Below are positions 9,966 through 63,996 of a stretch of 64,000 nucleotides of DNA, in pieces. Within the stretch, counting starts at the first letter, position 1, and every line of letters starts with the position of its first letter. The stretch is from Candidatus Omnitrophota bacterium. GTDB taxonomy: Bacteria; Omnitrophota; Gorgyraeia; 2-01-FULL-45-10. The notes below the pieces were generated by a model. The model searched no databases and was not told the DNA's origin. It saw only the letters and a program-made list of their open reading frames with translations. A program made the position numbers and the translations under genes. The stretch is taken from positions 1,574-65,573 of the forward strand of contig JBAZKH010000005.1 of the NCBI GenBank assembly GCA_041650935.1, read 5' to 3'.

Positions 9966-9995
9966 AAGCAGGGCACCTTTAAAGGTGCCCTGCTT
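9966..9995 (-). terminator. Putative intrinsic terminator after rplQ (perfect 13-bp inverted repeat GCAGGGCACCTTT/AAAGGTGCCCTGC)
   Basis: Perfect palindrome followed by UUCUUUA on the minus-strand transcript; lies between rplQ stop and the aspC promoter. Confidence 0.5.
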
Positions 9996-10020
9996 TGTGG
10001 ATAACTTTTTACACGATTAC

Positions 10021-41187: not shown

Positions 41188-41264
41188 TGGCAGGCCAGGA
41201 GGGACTCGAACCCCCAACACGCGGTTTTGGAGACCGCCGCTCTACCAATTAGAGCTACTGGCCT
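41188..41264 (-). tRNA. trpT: tRNA-Trp (anticodon CCA)
   Basis: Cloverleaf AGGCCAGTAGCTCTAATTGGTAGAGCGGCGGTCTCCAAAACCGCGTGTTGGGGGTTCGAGTCCCTCCTGGCCTGCCA; 3' CCA encoded. Confidence 0.85.
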
Positions 41265-42856: not shown

Positions 42857-42932
42857 TGGAGCTGCAGATCGGGATTGAACCGATGACCTCATCCTTACCA
42901 AGGATGTGCTCTACCGACTGAGCTACTGCAGC
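42857..42932 (-). tRNA. tRNA-Thr (anticodon GGU)
   Basis: GCTGCAGTAGCTCAGTCGGTAGAGCACATCCTTGGTAAGGATGAGGTCATCGGTTCAATCCCGATCTGCAGCTCCA. Confidence 0.85.
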
Positions 42933-52532: not shown

Positions 52533-52605
52533 TGGAGCGGGAGATGGGAATCGAACCCACGCAACGAGCTTGGAAGGCTCGTGTTCTACCATTGAACTAC
52601 TCCCG
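52533..52605 (-). tRNA. tRNA-Gly (anticodon UCC)
   Basis: GCGGGAGTAGTTCAATGGTAGAACACGAGCCTTCCAAGCTCGTTGCGTGGGTTCGATTCCCATCTCCCGCTCCA. Confidence 0.85.
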
Positions 52606-52611
52606 CATATA

Positions 52612-53727: not shown

Positions 53728-56577
53728 TCATGCCCTCCGTTCTTTAATCGGTAAAATGAAGTGGAAAACCGCGCCCTTGCCAAATTCCGATTCTGCCCAT
53801 ATCTTCCCCTTGTGCGCTTCTATTATTTGTTTACAAATCGATAGCCCCAAGCCTGCCCCGCCCACCTTTCTCTGTAATTGCGTAAATTGCTGAAATAGTT
53901 TGGGTATATCTTCTTTTTTAATGCCCGGACCGGTATCGTTAACCGTAACCTGAATACAATTATCCCGCCTGTCCGTGGTAATGGTAATACTGCCTTTGTC
54001 TGTAAACTTAAGGGCATTGTTCACCAGATTAGTCAAGACCTGGATAATTTTATCTCGATCGAATGTTACCCGTGGAAGATCCTTATCGAGCTTACACATA
54101 AAATCCAGATTCTTTTTCTCTACTACCGGAAGCATCGTTTGCCGTATTTCCTTAACCACTTCGTTTATATCATTCTCCCCCATCTTAAATTTCATTTTCC
54201 CGGACTCGAGCGTCTGAAAATCCAAAACTCCGTTAATCAGCCTATCCAGCCTATCTACATTTTTTTTGGTAATACCTAAATATTTTTGCTGCTCCGCGTT
54301 AATGTCTCCAAGTATTTTATCTAAAATCAAGGAAACCCCTTCTTTTATAGCGGCAAGCGGTGTTCTCAATTCATGAGAAACCATGCCGGCAAAATTTGAT
54401 TTTATCTCTGATGAGGTTTTAACAGCCTGCGCCTGGATTACCTCCTCGGCCGCGGCGGCCTGTTGAATGACAAAGGCGGTGGTAACGCTAAGATTGTCCA
54501 ATACCGCATCTTCATCTGACATTATTGCGTGTCTGGCAAAGAGAGCCAGAACGCCTATCGTCTCTCCGCCGGGAACTTTAAGCTGGTAGCCGGCGAACGA
54601 CTTTAGCCCCAACTCACGAGCCCATTCATGATTATGCACCCCGGGGTCATTTAACACATCATTAGTCAGAAACTTGTGATGTTCGCCGGAAGCGATGCGT
54701 CCGATCTTATAGCATCCAAACGGGACCCGGGCATGGCTTTTACCGTCTATGTGCGTATACCTGCCGGAGCTTGCCATTAAATGCAGGCATTTATCGCGAA
54801 AACGGCAGACATGAGGGCCTTCTTTGGCTTCGGCATGAATGCACCCTTTATCACACAAGTCTCCCGGCCGGATCAGCCATATCCGGCAAAAATCGGCGTC
54901 GAAAATACGCACAATATTGCCTGTTATGCTCTTAAGCTTATCCTCAAGCGTAGCAGGCGCAAGAAGCGATTGCTGGATCGCATTAACATCCTCTTGCCAC
55001 TTTAACGCGATTTCACGCTCAGCCTCTACCTTCTTACGCTCGGTTATATCACGCCCTTCGGGAATAAGAAATACCGTCTTCCCATCCTGGTCCTTAATCG
55101 GTTTAAGCGAAAAATCTATACAGTGGATGCTTCCATCGGCAGCAGGATGAGTTGCTTCAAAGAACACGGTTTCGCCGCTCGCGGCTTTCGTTACGGCCGC
55201 ACGCAGCTTATCCTGCATTGTTTTTGAATGAGCCCACCATGGTGTATCCCAGAAAGGTTTACCTAAACAATCCGATTCATTAATTCCCGCAAACTGCATA
55301 GCCGTCCTGTTTGCCTCGATAAGCGTACCATCCACCGTCATCATGCCGATAAACTGAAAAGCCTGGTCAAAAAGAGCGCGAATTTTTCTCTCATTTAAAC
55401 GCGACTGCTCTTCGGCCCTCTTACGCTCGGTGATGTCCCAGAAAAGTCCAAAGACCCCTGTAACATCACCGGTTTTGTTCCGGACAGGAACCTTAACCGT
55501 ATTGATAAAAACCGTTTTAGAATTTCCAAGATAATCTCCTATTACCACGTACTCTTCTTCTATATTCTCGGTCTTTCCCGATTCCATGACTCTTTTATCA
55601 TCGGCCCTGTATTTCTCAGCCAGATATGTTGGGAAAAAATCATAGTCTGTCTTTCCTGCGATCTCTTCGGGCCTGATCTTCAAATCTTTTGCATAATTTT
55701 CATTACAGGATATAAAGACCGAATTACTATCTTTTAAAAATACCTTTCCTGGAAGATTTTCAATAAGTGTCCTGTATTGCTGTTCCTTAGCCTGCATCAA
55801 TTCATTCTCTATGCGCTTGCGTTCGGTGATATTGCGAATATTGCATTGCATAACTTTCGCCCTGTTAACTAAAAAAGCCTCTGTGTTTATGCTCAGGTTT
55901 TTTTTGGTTTTTACCGGCGTGTCTTCGTAATGAATCACGCCGTCTTTCTCTAATCTTGACAGGGTCTCCTGAAAATCCTTGTCATTTTTAACCACGCCGA
56001 TTTCCCATAGTTTCTTTTTCAGAAGCTCCTCGTGAGAATAACCCAGCAATCCCTGGATAGATTCGTTAGAGTTAAGGATATCGCCTTTGGTTTTATGAAC
56101 GAGCAGTAACCCATCCCTCGATGTTTCAAAGGCCCTGCGATAACGCTCCTCAGACTCTTTTAACTCTATTTCCAAACGCCTACGCTCAGTAATGTCTTCG
56201 ATGGCCAGCAGGATCAGCTCTTCCTCTATTACCCCTGCTATTTTCTTAGAGACACGCACCTGACAGGCATTCAGGCACATGATTCGTTCGCCGATTTGCT
56301 CAAATTTGTGCTCGACTTCATAATCTTTCACAACTTTTTTCTCCGGCAGGATATCTTTAAGCAGAAGAAGTAGTTTTGGAATATCCCATTGCTTATCGCC
56401 TAAATCAGGAAGCGGTCGGCCGATTGTTTCTTTTTCTACGGTCTTAAAGTTGATATAGAAAGCCTGGTTGGCAGAAATAATTTTTAAGTTTTTATCCAAA
56501 ACCAAAAACGGCTCCCTTAGCGTAGCAATGATACTATTGGCATACTTTAATAGCGCTTCAACCCCTGGCTTGTCCAT
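53728..56577 (-). CDS. Multi-sensor hybrid-type histidine kinase (multiple PAS/PAC plus GAF plus HisKA plus HATPase_c)
   Basis: 949 aa; 'HELRTPL' H-box, 'DTGPGI' G-box. Confidence 0.85.
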   Translation of the reverse strand: MDKPGVEALLKYANSIIATLREPFLVLDKNLKIISANQAFYINFKTVEKETIGRPLPDLGDKQWDIPKLLLLLKDILPEKKVVKDYEVEHKFEQIGERIMCLNACQVRVSKKIAGVIEEELILLAIEDITERRRLEIELKESEERYRRAFETSRDGLLLVHKTKGDILNSNESIQGLLGYSHEELLKKKLWEIGVVKNDKDFQETLSRLEKDGVIHYEDTPVKTKKNLSINTEAFLVNRAKVMQCNIRNITERKRIENELMQAKEQQYRTLIENLPGKVFLKDSNSVFISCNENYAKDLKIRPEEIAGKTDYDFFPTYLAEKYRADDKRVMESGKTENIEEEYVVIGDYLGNSKTVFINTVKVPVRNKTGDVTGVFGLFWDITERKRAEEQSRLNERKIRALFDQAFQFIGMMTVDGTLIEANRTAMQFAGINESDCLGKPFWDTPWWAHSKTMQDKLRAAVTKAASGETVFFEATHPAADGSIHCIDFSLKPIKDQDGKTVFLIPEGRDITERKKVEAEREIALKWQEDVNAIQQSLLAPATLEDKLKSITGNIVRIFDADFCRIWLIRPGDLCDKGCIHAEAKEGPHVCRFRDKCLHLMASSGRYTHIDGKSHARVPFGCYKIGRIASGEHHKFLTNDVLNDPGVHNHEWARELGLKSFAGYQLKVPGGETIGVLALFARHAIMSDEDAVLDNLSVTTAFVIQQAAAAEEVIQAQAVKTSSEIKSNFAGMVSHELRTPLAAIKEGVSLILDKILGDINAEQQKYLGITKKNVDRLDRLINGVLDFQTLESGKMKFKMGENDINEVVKEIRQTMLPVVEKKNLDFMCKLDKDLPRVTFDRDKIIQVLTNLVNNALKFTDKGSITITTDRRDNCIQVTVNDTGPGIKKEDIPKLFQQFTQLQRKVGGAGLGLSICKQIIEAHKGKIWAESEFGKGAVFHFILPIKERRA

Positions 56578-56595
56578 TTAATTTTTATCTTTCAT
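56578..56595 (-). other. 5-codon uORF (MKDKN) whose UAA stop abuts the kinase AUG; SD positioned for the uORF
   Basis: AAGGAGG 9 nt upstream of uORF AUG; UAAAUG junction with kinase start. Confidence 0.3.
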
Positions 56596-56611
56596 CTTTT
56601 AAGACCTCCTT

Positions 56612-56666
56612 AAAAACAAAAAACCCAAGGTCTTGTGCTGTTTTAAGCACAAAAATACTTGGGTTG
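56612..56666 (-). terminator. Intrinsic terminator after the NTase cassette (nested hairpin plus U6GU5)
   Basis: AACCCAAG..(UUGUGCU..AGCACAA)..CUUGGGUU followed by UUUUUUGUUUUU on minus strand. Confidence 0.65.
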
Positions 56667-56832
56667 GCTTTAGAAAAACTTACCAGAGCGCTTGCCCTTG
56701 CTTGCCCGCATGCATGTATAGCTTAACATCTTACCCTGCCTCATCAAAGATTTTTTTATATCCTCATCGGTTATACGATACAATCCTTTTTAAGTTGATG
56801 GTAAGGGTTGGTAATGAACCGAACTTACGAAA

Positions 56833-57009
56833 TCACTTTAGCGAAAAAGGAACATTGACATGCATAGTAACCTCTTCCCTCACAGAAACCTTGTCTTTCG
56901 GAAAATTATTCGCGCAAAAATTTACAAACTCGATGTATTCATCCATCGATAGCCATCTATCCTGCTCTGGGAATTTGCCAACAGGCAGTTTTAACTCGCC
57001 TTTCCTCAT
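56833..57009 (-). CDS. Hypothetical 58-aa protein translationally coupled (ATGA overlap) to upstream nucleotidyltransferase gene
   Basis: MRKGELKLPVGKFPEQDRWLSMDEYIEFVNFCANNFPKDKVSVREEVTMHVNVPFSLK; not in ORF track (below 60 aa); start ATG overlaps NTase TGA. Confidence 0.4.
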   Translation of the reverse strand: MRKGELKLPVGKFPEQDRWLSMDEYIEFVNFCANNFPKDKVSVREEVTMHVNVPFSLK

Positions 57010-57545
57010 CTCTTGAGCACTCCTAAGATATCTTTATATATTTCTGCCGTTCCAAATTTCAAACAGATGCCTTTAAATTCCGCACCATTAAAATCTACTT
57101 TGTTTATCTTTATCAAGTCTATTATGTCAGGCATATCCTTCCATAATCTATTCTTTGACCCATGTTTTATGGCATGAAGTTTAAGCGCAATTAAATGATT
57201 AAGGGACGGGATAACCAATTCTGATCCCGCAATCTTAGCTTTTTGGCCTTCCTCCAGTATCTTATCCCGCGTCGCTTCATCGACAATCATAAAGTCAACA
57301 TCCGCCGATTCTTTAACGTTCGACATGCGCACCGCTACATTGGTCGCAAAATCTTCGGCGTAACCAGCTTCAATTAACGCCTTCTCAATCTTTTTAAAAT
57401 CATCTTTTGTCATCAGAAAATCAACATCGCGGGTCCCTCGCGTAACCTTATAAAAATTCACCGCGAAACCGCCTATAAGTATGCAAGGTACGGCTGATTT
57501 TTTTGACGCTTCAGCAACAAGGCGAAAAACCTTTGAATAATCCAT
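57006..57545 (-). CDS. Nucleotidyltransferase-fold protein (G[GS]x13DxD; AbiEii/MNT-like)
   Basis: 'LIGGFAVNFYKVTRGTRDVDF' plus second acidic 'DVDFMIVDE'; start at MDYSK (track ORF extends to 57611). Confidence 0.5.
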   Translation of the reverse strand: MDYSKVFRLVAEASKKSAVPCILIGGFAVNFYKVTRGTRDVDFLMTKDDFKKIEKALIEAGYAEDFATNVAVRMSNVKESADVDFMIVDEATRDKILEEGQKAKIAGSELVIPSLNHLIALKLHAIKHGSKNRLWKDMPDIIDLIKINKVDFNGAEFKGICLKFGTAEIYKDILGVLKR

Positions 57546-57700
57546 TGGAATATTATAGCGAAAAAATGGCCAAAACGGAAGGAGAATAATTACGCGGAAA
57601 TCTAACGGCATCTTTTGCGTTTCTTAAGAGAATCGGATAGCAATATTCCTCGCGCACCATTGCGGATAGCACGCCGGCCTTGCGCGATGGTCTTAGGTGG

Positions 57701-57844
57701 TCACGAATACCTCTCGGCGTACTTATCCACCAAAAATCTAAGCATCTTCTGATACTTGGTATTATACTTTTTGGCTTGTCCTTTAAAGAATTCGACACTT
57801 TTTTCGCTTAGCCTCAAGGTAACCATAACAGTATGCTCCGGCAT
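57701..57844 (-). CDS. Ribbon-helix-helix (CopG-like) small DNA-binding protein, putative antitoxin/autoregulator
   Basis: MPEHTVMVTLRLSEKSVEFFKGQAKKYNTKYQKMLRFLVDKYAERYS; beta-strand 'VTLRLSEK' plus two helices; hand-translated (alternative start 57826). Confidence 0.4.
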   Translation of the reverse strand: MPEHTVMVTLRLSEKSVEFFKGQAKKYNTKYQKMLRFLVDKYAERYS

Positions 57845-57883
57845 AACCAAGTCCTTAGGCGGAGGCAAAATGAGTTATCCACA

Positions 57884-57913
57884 AAGTAGCCGACGTTTAA
57901 ACGTCGGCTACTT
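57884..57913 (-). promoter_or_regulatory. 30-bp perfect palindrome AAGTAGCCGACGTTT|AAACGTCGGCTACTT (operator and/or terminator hairpin)
   Basis: 40 nt upstream of RHH ATG, about 100 nt downstream of giant ORF stop. Confidence 0.45.
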
Positions 57914-58011: not shown

Positions 58012-61000
58012 TTACAACGACTTGAGAACGGCTGCGTCACGTTCGTGGAACTCGACTATCTCCTTCGTATCTATCGGTCTTATTCTGATCAGTATTAGAC
58101 CCGTCGCTAATAGCTGCCGAATTCCGCTGGCGTCCATTTTGGCAAGTTCATCTAAAAGCACTTCGTAACTAGCTGACCCAGCGATAGCCGCAATACCTCG
58201 AATAAAACGTTCTGTGGATTCATTGATCTTGCTAATATCTATTGTCGACCTGGCCATTAGATCTGAACGATTCAGAAACTCTAACCCCGTCATGCCGCAG
58301 GTTCCAACAGGAGTAGCGGTTTTGCCTATCTCGCCTGTCATGTAGACAACATATGAGGCAGATTCCAATTTACCATCTCGTTTATCGCCTTCTTTTTGAT
58401 AAGCGAAAGTAATGACCCTCTTCTGCTGCGTATCTTTATCTGGTATTTCCTTTTGCACTGATACAATCAACGCTTGCCGCCCTTCAGGAGTATCTCTAAA
58501 AAGATTGACCGTGATATTATTACTCAGGTTACATCTAATTATTAGCCTGCTCACCTCATTCTTTGGTTGCGCAGCATAGCGTTGGTATGCTTCAAAAACT
58601 TGGTCGGCGAATTCTTCGCTGATAGGTATATTTATCATACCTGGTGCGCCATCAAAAATCTGTTTTTCGCATCGATTTTTAATCTCTTGGTCTATAGCTC
58701 TCATAATGTCTATCCAACCTGACCAGCTATCGCTTGCATTAGCAATTTCAAGACCTTGAATCTGTACTGCTTTTTGACCTAGCGCGTTAGAAACAACAGA
58801 AACAGGTATAACCGGCATCTCGCCTGTGGCAGAATCGCCACGTTCTATCTTCTTAAATTTAATTCTTGGTCTTTGCGTATCGGATACTCTGCTACTATCC
58901 TGTTGTCCTCTTTGTTCTTTAAGCGATTCTAAACGATTCATAATTGTCCGGACCATGCTATATGGAAACATTTGTGTCCCAACAGTTGAAGTCCCGGATA
59001 AACTTTGCTGTCCGCTTCCTTTTACTCTATCTGCTATCGTGCGAAAACTTATCAAAGCTTCTTCCATTGCCCTAGCGTCGATTCTTTCACTTACATAGCT
59101 ATCGATAATATTTCTAGCTTCTATTTCATTTCGTTCACGCCACTGTTTTTCATGAAAAGTTTCATACAATATTCTTAATCCATGCTGTTGATTACTTACG
59201 TAACGTATAGCACCTATTAACAGTGCAATCTCTGTATTTTCCCAGCCGCTTAAGATATCTTCCGGCATTTCACCAGTAGCTGAGTCGCCGCGAGCTGGTG
59301 ATGCATTTGTGATATCACTTATATAAATACCAAATTGCTCCCCTGTTAACCAAATGAGAGAAGCAGGGCCGGGAGTTATTAATCTAATCGTACCTGTTGC
59401 TTGCTTCGGTTGCCCAGTATAGTGATCGTTCCACTGAATTGTAATTGGCGCTTTGCTAGCCATCCACGTATTATATTGTTCAAGTCCATCCTTGCTAGCA
59501 ACGACAGGCTTTCTTTCCGGTAACTCGCTTGACTTATGGGGCATAAGGATTTCATGCTGAACTAACCATCTTACGATGGCCTCACCACTTATATTTGAAA
59601 GATCCGTATCCGGAGGCAGTCTATTTGTTAATTCGTGCACAGAGAGCATTTGTTCACGAAGTCCGTTCAACGAGCATTCTGCTATTATCCACGAATCCCT
59701 TGGATGCGCTTGAGCATTTATATCCGTATTCTTAATTCTCTCCGCAAGTTGTGATGGGGTCTTGGCATCTTGAGAGCTAGGTAATTTATTATCAGACTTC
59801 ATAGTAGTTAAAGTACTAGTGAATTTTATTGGCGAAACAAGTCTCATATTTAAACCTTCGCCTTCGATAGCCGATAACAAAATGTTGCGCGTAAGGTCAT
59901 GAAGCTGTCCGTTCGACTGAAGCATGTTTAGTATTTTTAGATGATTTTCATTCTCAGCCCCACCCCATATCTTATGATCTGGATTACGGGCTTTTCTTAC
60001 TAGTTCGACAAAAAGCTCCGGTCTGCTTTCTAGCAGATGCTGGAGGGCCACCATTACAGCATTAATGCCGTCTCGATACGCAAAAGCACCATTCTTGAGA
60101 ATCACTGTATCTGGCATTTCACCCGTTGCAGAGTCACCACGAGTCGCTCTTCTCTCATCATCCTCTCGTATGAGTCTATTTGCTTTTGCAACCCATGCGC
60201 TTAGTTCCTGAGCGCTCTGATTTGAAAAATTGGTGTTCCAAAATGATTCATGAAAATTCCTTGCCCTCAACGTATCTGCAAGCCGATTCGCATAATCTAT
60301 CAGCTCTCTTCTGTCCGTTGGACTGGTAGCAAGAGGCATACTACCTGCTATCTCAACCGGCGGGTTTAATGCTCCCTGCGATATGAATCTAGCGCTTTTT
60401 AATTGTTCTGCCAATTCGGGCGATATGTTTTTAGGCATTTCTCCTGTAGCAGAATCGCCGCGGATCTTGGTATCACTAGTTGGTGTTCCTGCTATAATCA
60501 ATGCACCTTCTGGAACTAATTTTAAATCGCTAGTCCAAAATGTATTGTCGTTACGCGCCAATAGAGAGAAATCTTGCGTGGTTGGACCAGCGCTTACTTC
60601 CCATTGATTTGATGTATTGACCCGACTAAAAATAAGTTCTTTAACAATTGTTCCTCTATCGCTATCAAGTGTAAAGAAAACTGAAATCTTAACAACATTC
60701 CCAGCCGCATCTTTAGTTACTCTGCTATTCTGCGGTCTTACTGATCCAGATCGCCACGCTATGGCTTCTAATACGTTTCTTAACGAAATACTGTTACGAT
60801 CCGATACGCCCTTATTCAATAAGTCACTCATTGTTAATATCGGCTCAACTTCTGTAACCTCCGACAATGTTTGAACTAAATGGCTATTTTGCACATCAAG
60901 CAACCTTTGGTAAATAACCTTTTCGGGCGGATTAACCAACGTACTCTCCGCGATGCTCTCTGTCTGTGGACTTATAAGAGTAAGGCCGGAAATACGCTCT

Positions 61001-63996
61001 GTGTCGGTTTCAGAAATTAATCGAATTGGTAATGGCCATCTCAACGCTCCGACATGCGGAGATCCCTTTTCTTTTTTATTATAATCTTGATAAAAATCGT
61101 CTTTTACCACAGCACAAATTTCGTTATCTTTGTCGAAACCGAGACAAATGAGAGGATTTGGACCTTTGTAAACATAGTTAACAACCCACCGAAGTAATTC
61201 TCCTGACATTGGAGTACGAAATACTTGTGTTTGTTCTGGGCCAAATGAGATAACGTGTTTCTCATGGTCTGCTACGCGTGCCCCTTCTTCAAACGCAATT
61301 GTTTCGCCATTTGTCAGCGTAATATCTAATTGGTGAGCAAAACGGCTATGTTGTCTCTCAAACGTATAGTCATCTATAGGGTGCGCATCGCCTGGCGATG
61401 TCGTTATAGCAGAAATCATCCTATCATTGCCTCTGCTCCATAATATCGCTCGCTCATCGTCTGGCAATATCTTATATTTTCTTCTTCCTAATATTTCGGG
61501 TGCTTTTATACGCAGAATTTCAAAGATTTTAGTAAGGATTGTAGGGTTCTCAGCTATAGTGGCATTTTTAGGCATTTCACCTGTGGCAGAGTCGCCGCGA
61601 GGACGTGCATCATATCCATGTATCATCCCATACGCGATGTCTTGAACATCGGAAGCGGCTGGTAAGTACCCTAAAGGATGCGCTGACCAAAAGCTTTCCG
61701 TTCTATGTGTAAATAAGCTAAGCCATGCCCTAAAGGCATCCCTGTCAGGTTCTGGGACATCTAACATATCCGCAATTTTATCAGAGTTAAGTACAATGGG
61801 GCTTAACGCTGGGTTCATCAAATAGTAATTGTAGAATTGAATAAACGGCACTAACCCATTTCGCGGAAGTGAAGTAACCTCAGTGTCAGGTTTATTGGGC
61901 ATCTTGCCTGTGGCAGAGTCACCACGGACAGGCTTCCCGGTAATCATCTTCTCTGTCTCTGCGGAAACCTTGTCAAATATATCCAACAGTCTTGCTCGTA
62001 ATTTGTTTCTCTCACCATATTCGTAAGTTGAAGTCGAGCTTAAATTTCTTCGAGATAACATTGTTATATCGGAATCCCGTTTTTCTTTGTCCGACGCCAA
62101 AGTCTCTTTTATTCTATTCCAATCTTCTTGCGTAGTCGCTGATTGTACCGCATGATTTAAATTTTCCAACATGTTCCATAGAGTGCTATATACATTACCA
62201 GCTCTCGTTTCAAAATAAGTAGGCGGCTCGAATTGTCTGATAATGTCATATCCTATTGAGACTAAGTTCCTGATTCTTCCCTTTGTTACGGCAGTGGTAT
62301 CTTTTACAGATTCTGAACTCTGGCCTGCATCTGGTGGCATTCTTCCCGTGGTAGAATCGCCACGAGTTGTCGCAATAGTTTCGATTCTATTACGAATTTC
62401 ATTTTTCATTCCTTCTGAAAATCCGTCAAAATTTTTATTGAATCCAGTGTTATATATGCGATTAAATATATCTTCTCTTATCTCTAGCTGGTTGGGATTC
62501 GACATGTTAATACTTCCTGTTGAGCCGGGAACATGTGCACGTAGCCATTTTTTGCCTTGTTTCATTTTTTGAACTAAAACTGATTCTCCGTCTTGCATGG
62601 TTTGGTTAACAATGTCTATGGCTTCTAGATGCATAAAAACATCCAACCTAAATGATATATCAGGATGTGCCGCCATAGATTCAGCATTCGTTGCATGGAT
62701 ATTATTTAAATCTCGAGTGGTGGGTAGTTGCCCGATTTCTAATACATAGGCAACAACTTTATTTACATAGTCGCTCAATCTGTATCCTGCTTCTTCAATT
62801 ACGGGCATAAGAGAATCCTTGCCTGACAGTCGGGAATCTAAATAATTGGCAATAAGATCATCGGCGATAGCCTGAACCAGCCGTTGCCGATTTGCTAAAC
62901 GCGATGCTTCTTCTGGTAATCCTGGTTGCGTTTGCTCTGTAGGCATTTCACCTGTAGCGGAGTCGCCGCGAGTCAAACCCTTTTCAATCTTTGCCAGTAT
63001 TTCTCCGACTTTAACCTGTGATACTTCCGGATCATTATTGGCATGCTGTATTTCCGTGCCGGTCTCTAAATAATATGTTGCGGCATTTAATTCGTGGAGT
63101 AGATAGTCAATGAACTCATTATTGTCTCCGGTATAAGTAACATTTACCCCGTAGCCGCGACTGAAAGATGCGATGCGCCACGGTATGACGGACTTATCTT
63201 TGCCTGTTACAACATGAATTAAGCCCTTGGATGCGCCAAATGGCTTGTTACCTATCTCGATAAGCTTTGCTACGTTCTCTTTGCCAATTTTGGCCTCTAA
63301 GGCTTTGGAAAGATCTGGAGCAAGGAAATCTGCTAACAAATGCGCCTCTAACCCATCGTATGTTTCATTAGGAGTATGCGCCATCTTGAGCAATAAGTCC
63401 CACATCGCTTGATGCCCTGGACAATCTTCTCTCGGCCAAAGTTTGTGATCAAATATGATTATATTTTCAAAACTCGGATCATAAGTTTCGTTCCCTTCCC
63501 TGACCGCATATAATGACTTACCCGCAATCTCGCCTACTTTTTCATTGAAACTTCCCGTTTGCGGTTCATGCGTTAATCTTAGGTACCCTCCGGGAACCAT
63601 TAAAAGAATCCCTTTCTTGGGATTTGCCTCCAAAGCACTTATAATATCGGCTGACAACGCAAATATATTTCTGTCGCGAGCACCTACTATCCCCATTTCA
63701 GAAAGTACTTGTGGAACAGCTATATTAGAAATACGTGATTCTACTATGGTCTCAATATGGCTTTTACCGCCTGAAAGTATTTTGAAATACGGGTTTTCGA
63801 TATCCGTTTTCTCAAATTTCGGCATTACCTCTATATATGAGTATCCCTTATTCTTTAATAGCTTTGAGAGGTTGCCGGTATGAAAACCGCCGGTTACAAG
63901 AATTGTTACATCCTTCTTTTCAGCTTTAAACTTATTCGCTATATTTTTTATGAAAGCATCGTCTCTTTTCTGGGAATATACATAGAACTTCTCCAT
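58012..63996 (-). CDS. Giant protein of unknown function (at least 1994 aa; possibly 5'-truncated by window edge) with 8 copies of RGDSATGEMP
   Basis: Long uninterrupted minus-strand ORF; motif copies at about 62943, 62335, 61899, 61571, 60434, 60113, 59264, 58813; no recognisable domains. Confidence 0.7.
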   Translation of the reverse strand: MEKFYVYSQKRDDAFIKNIANKFKAEKKDVTILVTGGFHTGNLSKLLKNKGYSYIEVMPKFEKTDIENPYFKILSGGKSHIETIVESRISNIAVPQVLSEMGIVGARDRNIFALSADIISALEANPKKGILLMVPGGYLRLTHEPQTGSFNEKVGEIAGKSLYAVREGNETYDPSFENIIIFDHKLWPREDCPGHQAMWDLLLKMAHTPNETYDGLEAHLLADFLAPDLSKALEAKIGKENVAKLIEIGNKPFGASKGLIHVVTGKDKSVIPWRIASFSRGYGVNVTYTGDNNEFIDYLLHELNAATYYLETGTEIQHANNDPEVSQVKVGEILAKIEKGLTRGDSATGEMPTEQTQPGLPEEASRLANRQRLVQAIADDLIANYLDSRLSGKDSLMPVIEEAGYRLSDYVNKVVAYVLEIGQLPTTRDLNNIHATNAESMAAHPDISFRLDVFMHLEAIDIVNQTMQDGESVLVQKMKQGKKWLRAHVPGSTGSINMSNPNQLEIREDIFNRIYNTGFNKNFDGFSEGMKNEIRNRIETIATTRGDSTTGRMPPDAGQSSESVKDTTAVTKGRIRNLVSIGYDIIRQFEPPTYFETRAGNVYSTLWNMLENLNHAVQSATTQEDWNRIKETLASDKEKRDSDITMLSRRNLSSTSTYEYGERNKLRARLLDIFDKVSAETEKMITGKPVRGDSATGKMPNKPDTEVTSLPRNGLVPFIQFYNYYLMNPALSPIVLNSDKIADMLDVPEPDRDAFRAWLSLFTHRTESFWSAHPLGYLPAASDVQDIAYGMIHGYDARPRGDSATGEMPKNATIAENPTILTKIFEILRIKAPEILGRRKYKILPDDERAILWSRGNDRMISAITTSPGDAHPIDDYTFERQHSRFAHQLDITLTNGETIAFEEGARVADHEKHVISFGPEQTQVFRTPMSGELLRWVVNYVYKGPNPLICLGFDKDNEICAVVKDDFYQDYNKKEKGSPHVGALRWPLPIRLISETDTERISGLTLISPQTESIAESTLVNPPEKVIYQRLLDVQNSHLVQTLSEVTEVEPILTMSDLLNKGVSDRNSISLRNVLEAIAWRSGSVRPQNSRVTKDAAGNVVKISVFFTLDSDRGTIVKELIFSRVNTSNQWEVSAGPTTQDFSLLARNDNTFWTSDLKLVPEGALIIAGTPTSDTKIRGDSATGEMPKNISPELAEQLKSARFISQGALNPPVEIAGSMPLATSPTDRRELIDYANRLADTLRARNFHESFWNTNFSNQSAQELSAWVAKANRLIREDDERRATRGDSATGEMPDTVILKNGAFAYRDGINAVMVALQHLLESRPELFVELVRKARNPDHKIWGGAENENHLKILNMLQSNGQLHDLTRNILLSAIEGEGLNMRLVSPIKFTSTLTTMKSDNKLPSSQDAKTPSQLAERIKNTDINAQAHPRDSWIIAECSLNGLREQMLSVHELTNRLPPDTDLSNISGEAIVRWLVQHEILMPHKSSELPERKPVVASKDGLEQYNTWMASKAPITIQWNDHYTGQPKQATGTIRLITPGPASLIWLTGEQFGIYISDITNASPARGDSATGEMPEDILSGWENTEIALLIGAIRYVSNQQHGLRILYETFHEKQWRERNEIEARNIIDSYVSERIDARAMEEALISFRTIADRVKGSGQQSLSGTSTVGTQMFPYSMVRTIMNRLESLKEQRGQQDSSRVSDTQRPRIKFKKIERGDSATGEMPVIPVSVVSNALGQKAVQIQGLEIANASDSWSGWIDIMRAIDQEIKNRCEKQIFDGAPGMINIPISEEFADQVFEAYQRYAAQPKNEVSRLIIRCNLSNNITVNLFRDTPEGRQALIVSVQKEIPDKDTQQKRVITFAYQKEGDKRDGKLESASYVVYMTGEIGKTATPVGTCGMTGLEFLNRSDLMARSTIDISKINESTERFIRGIAAIAGSASYEVLLDELAKMDASGIRQLLATGLILIRIRPIDTKEIVEFHERDAAVLKSL

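Follow-up and report, generated by a model that had tools for sequence, protein, structure and literature searches.

In one Candidatus Omnitrophota genome, a perfect 30-bp palindrome, a short ribbon–helix–helix (RHH) reading frame, a nucleotidyltransferase (NTase) gene, a 58-codon open reading frame (ORF) and an intrinsic terminator lie close together. Do they form a single operon, or have unrelated elements come to lie side by side? The sequence in question is a 64,000-nucleotide (nt) stretch (GCA_041650935.1, contig JBAZKH010000005.1, positions 1,574–65,573), here called the window, for which an initial annotation had proposed a three-gene toxin–antitoxin (TA) or defense cassette with the palindrome as the operator of the RHH protein. 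All five features were confirmed in place. Based on the comparison with related loci, the region is a mosaic of three unrelated elements: a repetitive extragenic palindrome (REP), a relic of the antitoxin gene brnA, and a pair formed by the NTase gene and the 58-codon ORF. This pair is, by a judgment that leans modestly in its favor, a TA system of the MenT type.

Only the NTase gene and the 58-codon ORF form a conserved unit

Scanning of one genome per species yielded 296 NTase loci, and the neighborhoods of 86 of these were compared. The 296 loci are overwhelmingly from Omnitrophota, with a few from Saganbacteria, Ratteibacteria, Elusimicrobia and other groups. In 83 of the 86 loci, a gene for the small partner protein follows the NTase gene directly, either overlapping its stop codon or beginning no more than about 20 nt away. 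Of the remaining three, two (L016 and L075) carry the partner when ORFs are called directly and one (L062) ends at a contig edge. The flanking genes are variable, with no neighbor family present in more than 14 of the 86 loci, and two divergent NTase copies are found together in single assemblies (L016 with L063, and L022 with L064). The NTase gene and the 58-codon ORF are the only conserved unit of the region.

The RHH frame is found in none of the 85 related NTase loci; the only NTase-bearing contig that carries it is that of the window itself. It is also missing from the closest locus (L007), in which the NTase is 85% identical and the order of NTase, small ORF and PAS kinase is kept. The sequence upstream of the L007 NTase is devoid of the giant gene, the RHH ORF and the palindrome. 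Absence of the RHH frame from relatives had been named beforehand as the observation that would overturn the three-gene operon, and the RHH gene, NTase gene and small ORF are already refuted as a conserved unit. What stands of the initial annotation is its suggestion of a TA-like module, which is plausible for the NTase gene and its partner because the NTase belongs to the AbiEii/MenT type and its partner gene is conserved, tightly linked and overlapping; the RHH ORF and the palindrome are not part of it. A literature search combining Omnitrophota with TA terms returned no account of such a pair, or of REPs in this phylum.

Table 1 Features of the window, with positions counted from its first nucleotide
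Feature	Position	Strand	Details
MenT1/AbiEii-like minimal NTase, 179 residues, putative toxin	57006..57545	-	Pfam, AlphaFold2 (AF2), profile and Foldseek
58-residue partner, putative antitoxin	56833..57009	-	ATGA overlap with NTase stop (57006–57009); AGGAG 57020–57024
Promoter-like block of the NTase operon	57552..57580	-	TTCCGT 57575–57580, 17-nt spacer, TATAAT 57552–57557, 6 nt before ATG
Intrinsic terminator after the pair	56612..56665	-	Hairpin 56622–56665, then U-tract UUUUGUUUUU 56612–56621
REP element	57873..57913	-	30-bp palindrome 57884–57913, core GTAGCCGACGTTTAAACGTCGGCTAC 57886–57911, then minus-strand TGTGGATAAC(T) 57883–57873
5'-truncated brnA antitoxin gene	57701..57872	-	Matches residues 22–76 of 76-residue BrnA
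Second REP copy	9966..10005	+	AAGCAGGGCACCTTTAAAGGTGCCCTGCTT then TGTGGATAAC; between two minus-strand genes
Three tRNA genes	41191–41264, 42860–42932, 52536–52606	-	Rfam scan

The NTase shares its catalytic residues and fold with MenT1

The NTase scores above the gathering score of several Pfam families, namely NTP_transf_5 (37.6 bits versus 31.2), DUF2204 (29.6 versus 20.3) and AbiEii (PF08843; 27.1 versus 22.5), in agreement with its initial assignment to the NTase fold on the basis of a GG-x13-DxD motif. This motif consists of G25-G26, 13 residues and D40-x-D42, and is invariant in relatives. Across 82 relatives, K122 and D137 likewise do not vary, and conservation of T38 is 90% or higher. 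Residues T38, D40, K122 and D137 align with T39, D41, K137 and D152 of MenT1, the four positions at which active-site substitutions (T39A, D41A, K137A and D152A) were made in the study of that toxin (PMC10435456, PMC11375011). All four have counterparts that are kept in the NTase.

The structural comparison leads to the same protein and shows the bilobed fold of MenT enzymes. The AF2 model of the NTase has a predicted local distance difference test score (pLDDT) of 92.3, and a Foldseek search of the PDB with this model returned MenT1 in all of its top five matches (E 1.4e-8, template modeling (TM) score 0.66, 178 aligned columns), followed by ANT(2'')-Ia, LnuA, TM1012 and MenT3. By sequence, MenT1 is also the closest solved relative, with a profile match to PDB entry 8an4 at E 1.7e-5. 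The NTase and MenT1 (Rv0078A–Rv0078B of Mycobacterium tuberculosis encode MenT1–MenA1; PDB 8AN4/8AN5) are both minimal NTases, of 179 and 196 residues, respectively. They share the sequence GGFAV, 8 residues and R-x-T-x-D-x-D with identical spacing, and both retain the Lys and the Asp found in the C-terminal motif.

The initial annotation had left the length of the NTase between 180 and 201 residues. The start is assigned to the ATG at 57545, rather than to position 57611, because most of the 120 relatives listed, from a total of 472, are 177–184 residues long. This supports the shorter form, at 179 residues, and leaves the 201-residue form without support. The longer form would also overlap the promoter-like block that is conserved with the related loci L007 and L008.

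The partner is a small stand-alone protein that co-diverges with the NTase

The 58-residue partner belongs to a family with 187 representatives at 50% identity. Among the 150 best of these, all but two spurious long matches are stand-alone proteins of 43–142 residues, mostly 54–70, and no credible domain fusion was found. The conserved features of the family are an N-terminal L-x-L-P sequence, a helix with the sequence LSMD(D/E)YLxFV and a C-terminal VNVPF. Residues M22, Y25 and F55 are invariant, with Tyr25 present in all of 57 diverse partners. The AF2 model is of low confidence (pLDDT 64.7) and contains a single confident helix, formed by residues 22–35. Divergence of the partner tracks that of the NTase (Mantel r 0.64, p 0.001), and the partner changes faster, with a mean distance of 0.52 compared to 0.42. 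Antitoxins usually evolve faster than toxins.

In size and character the partner is similar to MenA1, an antitoxin of 68 residues that is predicted to be disordered and has no DNA-binding domain (PMC10435456, PMC11375011): both are mostly disordered, have one main helix and are devoid of a DNA-binding domain. There is no detectable sequence similarity between the two, and the partner is considered not to be related to MenA1 because neither Pfam nor the solved structures yielded a relative.

A TA system of the MenT type is the favored function of the pair

MenT1 adds cytidine monophosphate (CMP) to the 3' ends of tRNA, and MenA1 has two effects on MenT1: it occludes the active site, and it makes the enzyme auto-phosphorylate at T39 (PMC10435456, PMC11375011). 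By analogy, the NTase would add nucleotides to tRNA 3' ends and thereby block translation, and the small, mostly disordered, one-helix partner would bind and neutralize it. Neutralization would proceed by blocking access to the active site, by triggered auto-phosphorylation of T38, which corresponds to MenT1 T39, or by both. We put the chance that the pair consists of a toxin of the MenT type and, downstream of it, a new micro-antitoxin at about even. The division of the region into three elements, the homologies, the linkage of the two genes, the conserved catalytic residues and the fold are observed directly; toxicity, the tRNA target, the antitoxin role, use of the promoter and the leaderless start are inferred. 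A fuller proposal is held a shade more tentatively: the NTase and the protein of 57–58 residues would represent an undescribed MenT-type TA branch that is widespread in Omnitrophota, with an unrelated micro-antitoxin encoded downstream, coupled to the toxin on a leaderless mRNA and acting either through auto-phosphorylation of T38 or through nucleotidylation of its own Tyr25; as a separate element of this proposal, the REPs may scatter DnaA boxes.

Several observations weigh against a MenT-type TA system. The toxin role of the NTase family is putative, and the NTase shares only about 21% identity with MenT1. The NTase gene comes first and the partner gene overlaps its stop codon, whereas menA1 lies upstream of menT1 (PMC10435456, PMC11375011). 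The partner has no relative in Pfam, NCBIfam, PADLOC or the PDB and no similarity to AbiEi or, as described above, to MenA1. Neither of the known cognate antitoxin classes, AbiEi/COG5340 and MenA1, was found adjoining the NTase. The NTase also scores above the gathering score of Pfam Aminoglyc_resit (24.3 bits, N-terminal core), and the antibiotic nucleotidyltransferases ANT(2'')-Ia and LnuA are its next structural neighbors after MenT1. Its PADLOC matches to AbiEii are weak (best E 5e-4), and the family has no match in plasmid, phage or IMG/VR collections. The hosts also differ, Omnitrophota here and Actinomycetota for MenT1–MenA1, and the activity of the Omnitrophota pair is putative.

Other known NTase systems fit the pair less closely. 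With AbiE (AbiEi–AbiEii, a type IV TA and abortive infection system), the pair shares the NTase clan, the catalytic motifs and a score above the AbiEii gathering score; it differs in that no AbiEi gene is present and in that the NTase is about 100 residues below the typical length of AbiEii. With MntA–HepT, a type VII TA system of the MNT–HEPN class, it shares the order of an NTase gene followed by a small partner gene. In one rival reading, the polarity is reversed as in such systems, such that the NTase is the antidote or modifier and the 58-residue protein is the toxin or target, nucleotidylated for example at Tyr25. The antitoxin gene comes first in mntA–hepT, and the order of NTase and then partner fits this usual antitoxin-first arrangement. 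The invariance of Tyr25 and the lysine- and arginine-rich composition of the partner in most clades are consistent with this reading as well. Nevertheless, it is judged rather improbable: from end to end, the NTase is similar to the toxin MenT1, and it groups with the MenT/AbiEii toxins, with no minimal MNT antitoxin among the 50 Foldseek matches listed; the partner is not a HEPN protein, being far below HEPN size and lacking the RX4-6H motif; and it evolves faster than the NTase.

A further possibility is that the pair is not a TA system and instead forms a two-subunit enzyme, engaged in repair or tagging of RNA 3' ends or in nucleotidylation of small molecules or antibiotics, with the small protein as an adaptor or regulator. 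The strong conservation of the NTase, which is 50–55% identical across the phylum, would suit such an enzyme, as would the above-described match to Aminoglyc_resit and proximity to ANT(2'')-Ia and LnuA, the many co-oriented housekeeping neighbors, and the absence of copies from known plasmids and phages. Carriage of the NTase on mobile elements was considered and dropped on account of this absence, which leaves the variable neighborhoods as the sole basis on which mobility of the family is proposed. However, the neighborhood of the pair is not conserved, divergent copies occur together in single genomes, and the spread across phyla is patchy. The best full-length match, which includes the C-terminal helical domain, is a toxin, and the counterpart of its regulatory phospho-acceptor Thr is conserved. 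A non-TA enzyme is unlikely on this evidence, although it is a stronger candidate than the reversed polarity.

The pair probably has its own promoter

Within the subclade of the window, a perfect TATAAT is present 6–8 nt before the NTase ATG in eight distinct upstream sequences (L001–L011), with a conserved TTCCnTTT approximately 17 nt further upstream. This block of about 45 nt is the only upstream sequence common to the window, L007 and L008. The NTase gene is separated from the stop codon of the RHH ORF by a non-conserved gap of 155 nt. Because the conserved TATAAT block lies immediately before the ATG, the pair probably has an independent promoter and its mRNA is probably leaderless. The partner would be translationally coupled to the NTase, since the two ORFs overlap at an ATGA sequence.

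The strong intrinsic terminator that had been placed at 56612–56666 is confirmed as a hairpin followed by a U-tract. It is contained in a segment of about 225 nt (~56605–56832) between the small ORF and the kinase gene that is absent from L007, where the kinase starts 28 nt past the small ORF. Because of this difference, the operon structure is not the same in close relatives. The start of the PAS/GAF histidine kinase itself (56575–56595, minus strand) also differs from that of the closest relative: the ancestral ATG at 56595 now opens a mini-ORF of five codons (MKDKN, stop at 56578–56580), and the kinase restarts at the ATG at 56577.

The palindrome is a REP element rather than an operator

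The palindrome is perfect, with two arms of 15 nt that are 100% complementary. Its sequence is unique in the window when up to 3 mismatches are allowed, and none of 100 shuffled sequences gave a match. The whole 86-nt stretch around it folds as RNA at −26.1 kcal/mol (z −5.0). The exact 26-nt core is found in at least 119 metagenome contig stretches, with 2–3 copies on several contigs, and occurs dispersed and independently of brnA. Of 123 non-redundant copies, 67 have the flank motif TGTGGATAAC, located at 57874–57883 of the minus strand in the window copy, on one or both sides; in 66 of these, it is one-sided and starts 2–3 nt from the foot of the hairpin. The repeat is largely extragenic: of the 66 oriented copies, 59 lie between genes, in many cases no more than 30 nt from each neighbor, and the copies fill very short gaps in either orientation relative to transcription. 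In variants of the stem (GGGACG, GGGAGG, CTGACG, CCCAGG, CGCACC and others), both arms are altered and the TTTAAA center and the flank are retained, as is GTAG...CTAC in almost all of them. The second copy in the window follows this pattern, with a stem that differs on both arms from that of the first and an identical center and flank.

In five of the retrieved loci (L118, L122, L150, L178 and L181), a gene for a protein of 163–167 residues is bracketed on both sides by hairpin and motif, and the motif side always faces the gene. The protein matches the NCBIfam equivalog NF047646, "REP-associated tyrosine transposase" (RAYT), with 124.5 bits relative to a cut-off of 80, as well as Pfam Y1_Tnp (PF01797, 42.8 bits) and the structure of the E. 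coli TnpA-REP transposase (4er8). By the published definition, REPs are short GC-rich palindromes (20–40 bp) with a GTAG tag, and GTAG-tagged REPs that flank RAYT genes are the class associated with RAYTs (PMC3733652). Relative to these elements (E. coli 4ER8) as they are outlined in PMC3733652 and PMC2817692, the Omnitrophota repeat has the same GC-rich palindrome of 26–30 bp with a GTAG tag, the same abundance of extragenic copies, and the same inverted copies flanking a Y1 (HUH) transposase that satisfies the NCBIfam RAYT model. It differs from that description in that GTAG pairs with CTAC within the stem, whereas it is unpaired in known REPs. A conserved flank of 10–11 nt (TGTGGATAACT) that contains TTATCCACA is an additional feature here. 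The hosts listed in the abstract of the 2013 survey (PMC3733652) do not include Omnitrophota either.

The palindrome is a REP element. It belongs, with a GTAG...CTAC hairpin, a TTTAAA center and a TGTGGATAAC flank, to a lineage-restricted family that brackets RAYT genes, and the family is presumably mobilized by RAYT transposases. A point against this assignment is that no RAYT gene lies inside the 64-kb window. The family is regarded as lineage-restricted because, among approximately 696 kb of loci picked regardless of the repeat, it occurs only in the window and in L008, which is a fairly close relative. Lineage restriction is usual for REPs. The Rfam search gave no family for either hairpin and returned only sub-threshold matches to STnc240.

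The flank AGTTATCCACA (57873–57883 and 9996–10006 in the window; loci L094–L212) includes TTATCCACA, which is identical to the classical DnaA-box consensus. This flank may serve solely in recognition or cleavage by the RAYT, or as a DnaA site as well. The REP family may spread perfect DnaA-box sequences across these genomes. About 45% of the exact-core copies (L097, L144, L159, L164, L167, L210 and others) are devoid of the TGTGGATAAC flank. Many of these flankless cores are embedded in another, longer repeat (...AGATAGGTAGATAACAATGCAAA-core-TTTGTTTCAATCCCTCGACGAGGAA...), and the hairpin core is therefore considered to be reused in at least one other repeat family.

The RHH frame is the remainder of a brnA gene

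The RHH ORF is the 3' two-thirds of a brnA gene, a leftover of a brnT–brnA type II TA locus as judged from its relatives. It matches Pfam BrnA_antitoxin (PF14384) at E 4.4e-5 with 24.2 bits, just under the cut-off of 26.1, and CopG_antitoxin at E 0.0075, both through the RHH part. Its full-length relatives are 67–89 residues long, mostly 76, and the fragment is 85–95% identical to full-length proteins that bear PF14384, reaching 95% over the C-terminal 55 residues of the 76-residue Omnitrophota BrnA. In nearly all of the intact loci examined, a gene for a 93-residue BrnT toxin overlaps the start of brnA. In contrast, the window is missing both brnT, for which the best tblastn match has an E value of 4.0, and the first 21 brnA codons. 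DNA homology with the intact loci extends from approximately 57872 (TTTTGCCTCCGCC) to the stop codon at 57701, and the breakpoint at 57872 abuts the edge of the REP at 57873.

Because brnT and these 21 codons are missing, the RHH ORF is a relic or an orphan RHH domain and not a TA locus. The frame is open from a TTG at 57868 (55 residues) or from an ATG at 57844 (47 residues) and retains the complete RHH domain. The ratio of nonsynonymous to synonymous substitution rates (dN/dS) between the fragment and intact copies is about 0.02, a value that weighs against a pure relic and makes residual function possible. With the frame open and dN/dS this low, either the truncation is recent or the domain is still in use. 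A 47-residue RHH domain could still be made; nothing links it to the neighboring genes.

These results bear directly on the operon of the initial annotation, in which an RHH repressor, the NTase and the small ORF would be governed through binding of the repressor to the 30-bp palindrome, as a defense or addiction module or as a regulator of the giant gene. The parts are adjacent and share one orientation, the RHH domain is complete, its frame is open and dN/dS is low. Promoter-like hexamers are also present upstream of the palindrome, though in a number not above that of shuffled sequence. Against these points, what remains of the RHH gene is part of brnA, a gene that natively pairs with brnT, and the palindrome is not a private site of this locus and is instead a dispersed REP that also occurs next to RAYT genes. 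Inverted-repeat scans of three intact brnTA loci and the brnT promoter read in L087 revealed no GTAGCCGACG-type palindrome upstream of brnT, which leaves the operator reading unsupported. Furthermore, the NTase has its own conserved promoter block and is set apart from the RHH stop codon by the non-conserved 155-nt gap, and the giant gene beside the pair is not conserved. Together with the absence of the RHH frame from related NTase loci, this evidence makes the single operon very improbable. The hexamers upstream of the palindrome (TTGACG-17-TATGCT) were also considered as a relic of a brnT promoter, such as that of L087 (TTGACA-17-TATGCT), and were rejected on the basis of an alignment without homology beyond the hexamers.

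Two intact loci provide further observations. In L109, a brnT–brnA-like pair (1954–2479) lies beside a restriction–modification pair, with a REP (2585–2610) approximately 105 nt upstream of brnT. From this arrangement, REPs and BrnTA loci co-occur in these genomes. In L087, a tRNA gene and a long structured stretch, similar to tRNA or transfer-messenger RNA (tmRNA) and ending in a terminator, lie just upstream of an intact brnTA locus (~1810–1885, ~2360–2640).

The giant neighboring gene

The giant ORF (58012–63996, minus strand) encodes at least 1994 residues in the window and 2434 residues on the source contig, and contains eight copies of the motif RGDS(A/T)TG(E/K/R)MP at irregular spacing. 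It has no Pfam match on record and no relative in the other compared loci, including all 85 other NTase loci, a result that does not bear out the suggestion that the cassette regulates it. A link between the giant gene and the pair was likewise discarded: the giant ORF that lies upstream of the NTase in L004–L006 is unrelated. The REP lies 98 nt past the giant-gene stop codon and may stabilize or end the giant-gene transcript. As a canonical terminator for this gene, the palindrome was rejected; although stable, its hairpin is followed by UUUGUGGAUAAC, which makes a poor U-tract, and the terminator scan called none.

Implications

The analysis offers a clear-cut case of a REP/RAYT system in Omnitrophota, in which one REP lies precisely where a decayed TA locus is broken off. 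A lesson for practice also follows: until dispersed repeats have been excluded, finding a perfect palindrome next to an RHH gene does not amount to evidence for an operator. If the NTase and its partner are a true TA system, the partner would add to MenA1 and the AbiEi-like MenA3 a third, unrelated way of countering MenT-type toxins that modify tRNA. The source phylum consists of ultra-small, host-dependent bacteria in which almost nothing has been tested. In that case, the pair could also be used to ask directly whether auto-phosphorylation induced by the antitoxin is a general property of MenT-type enzymes.

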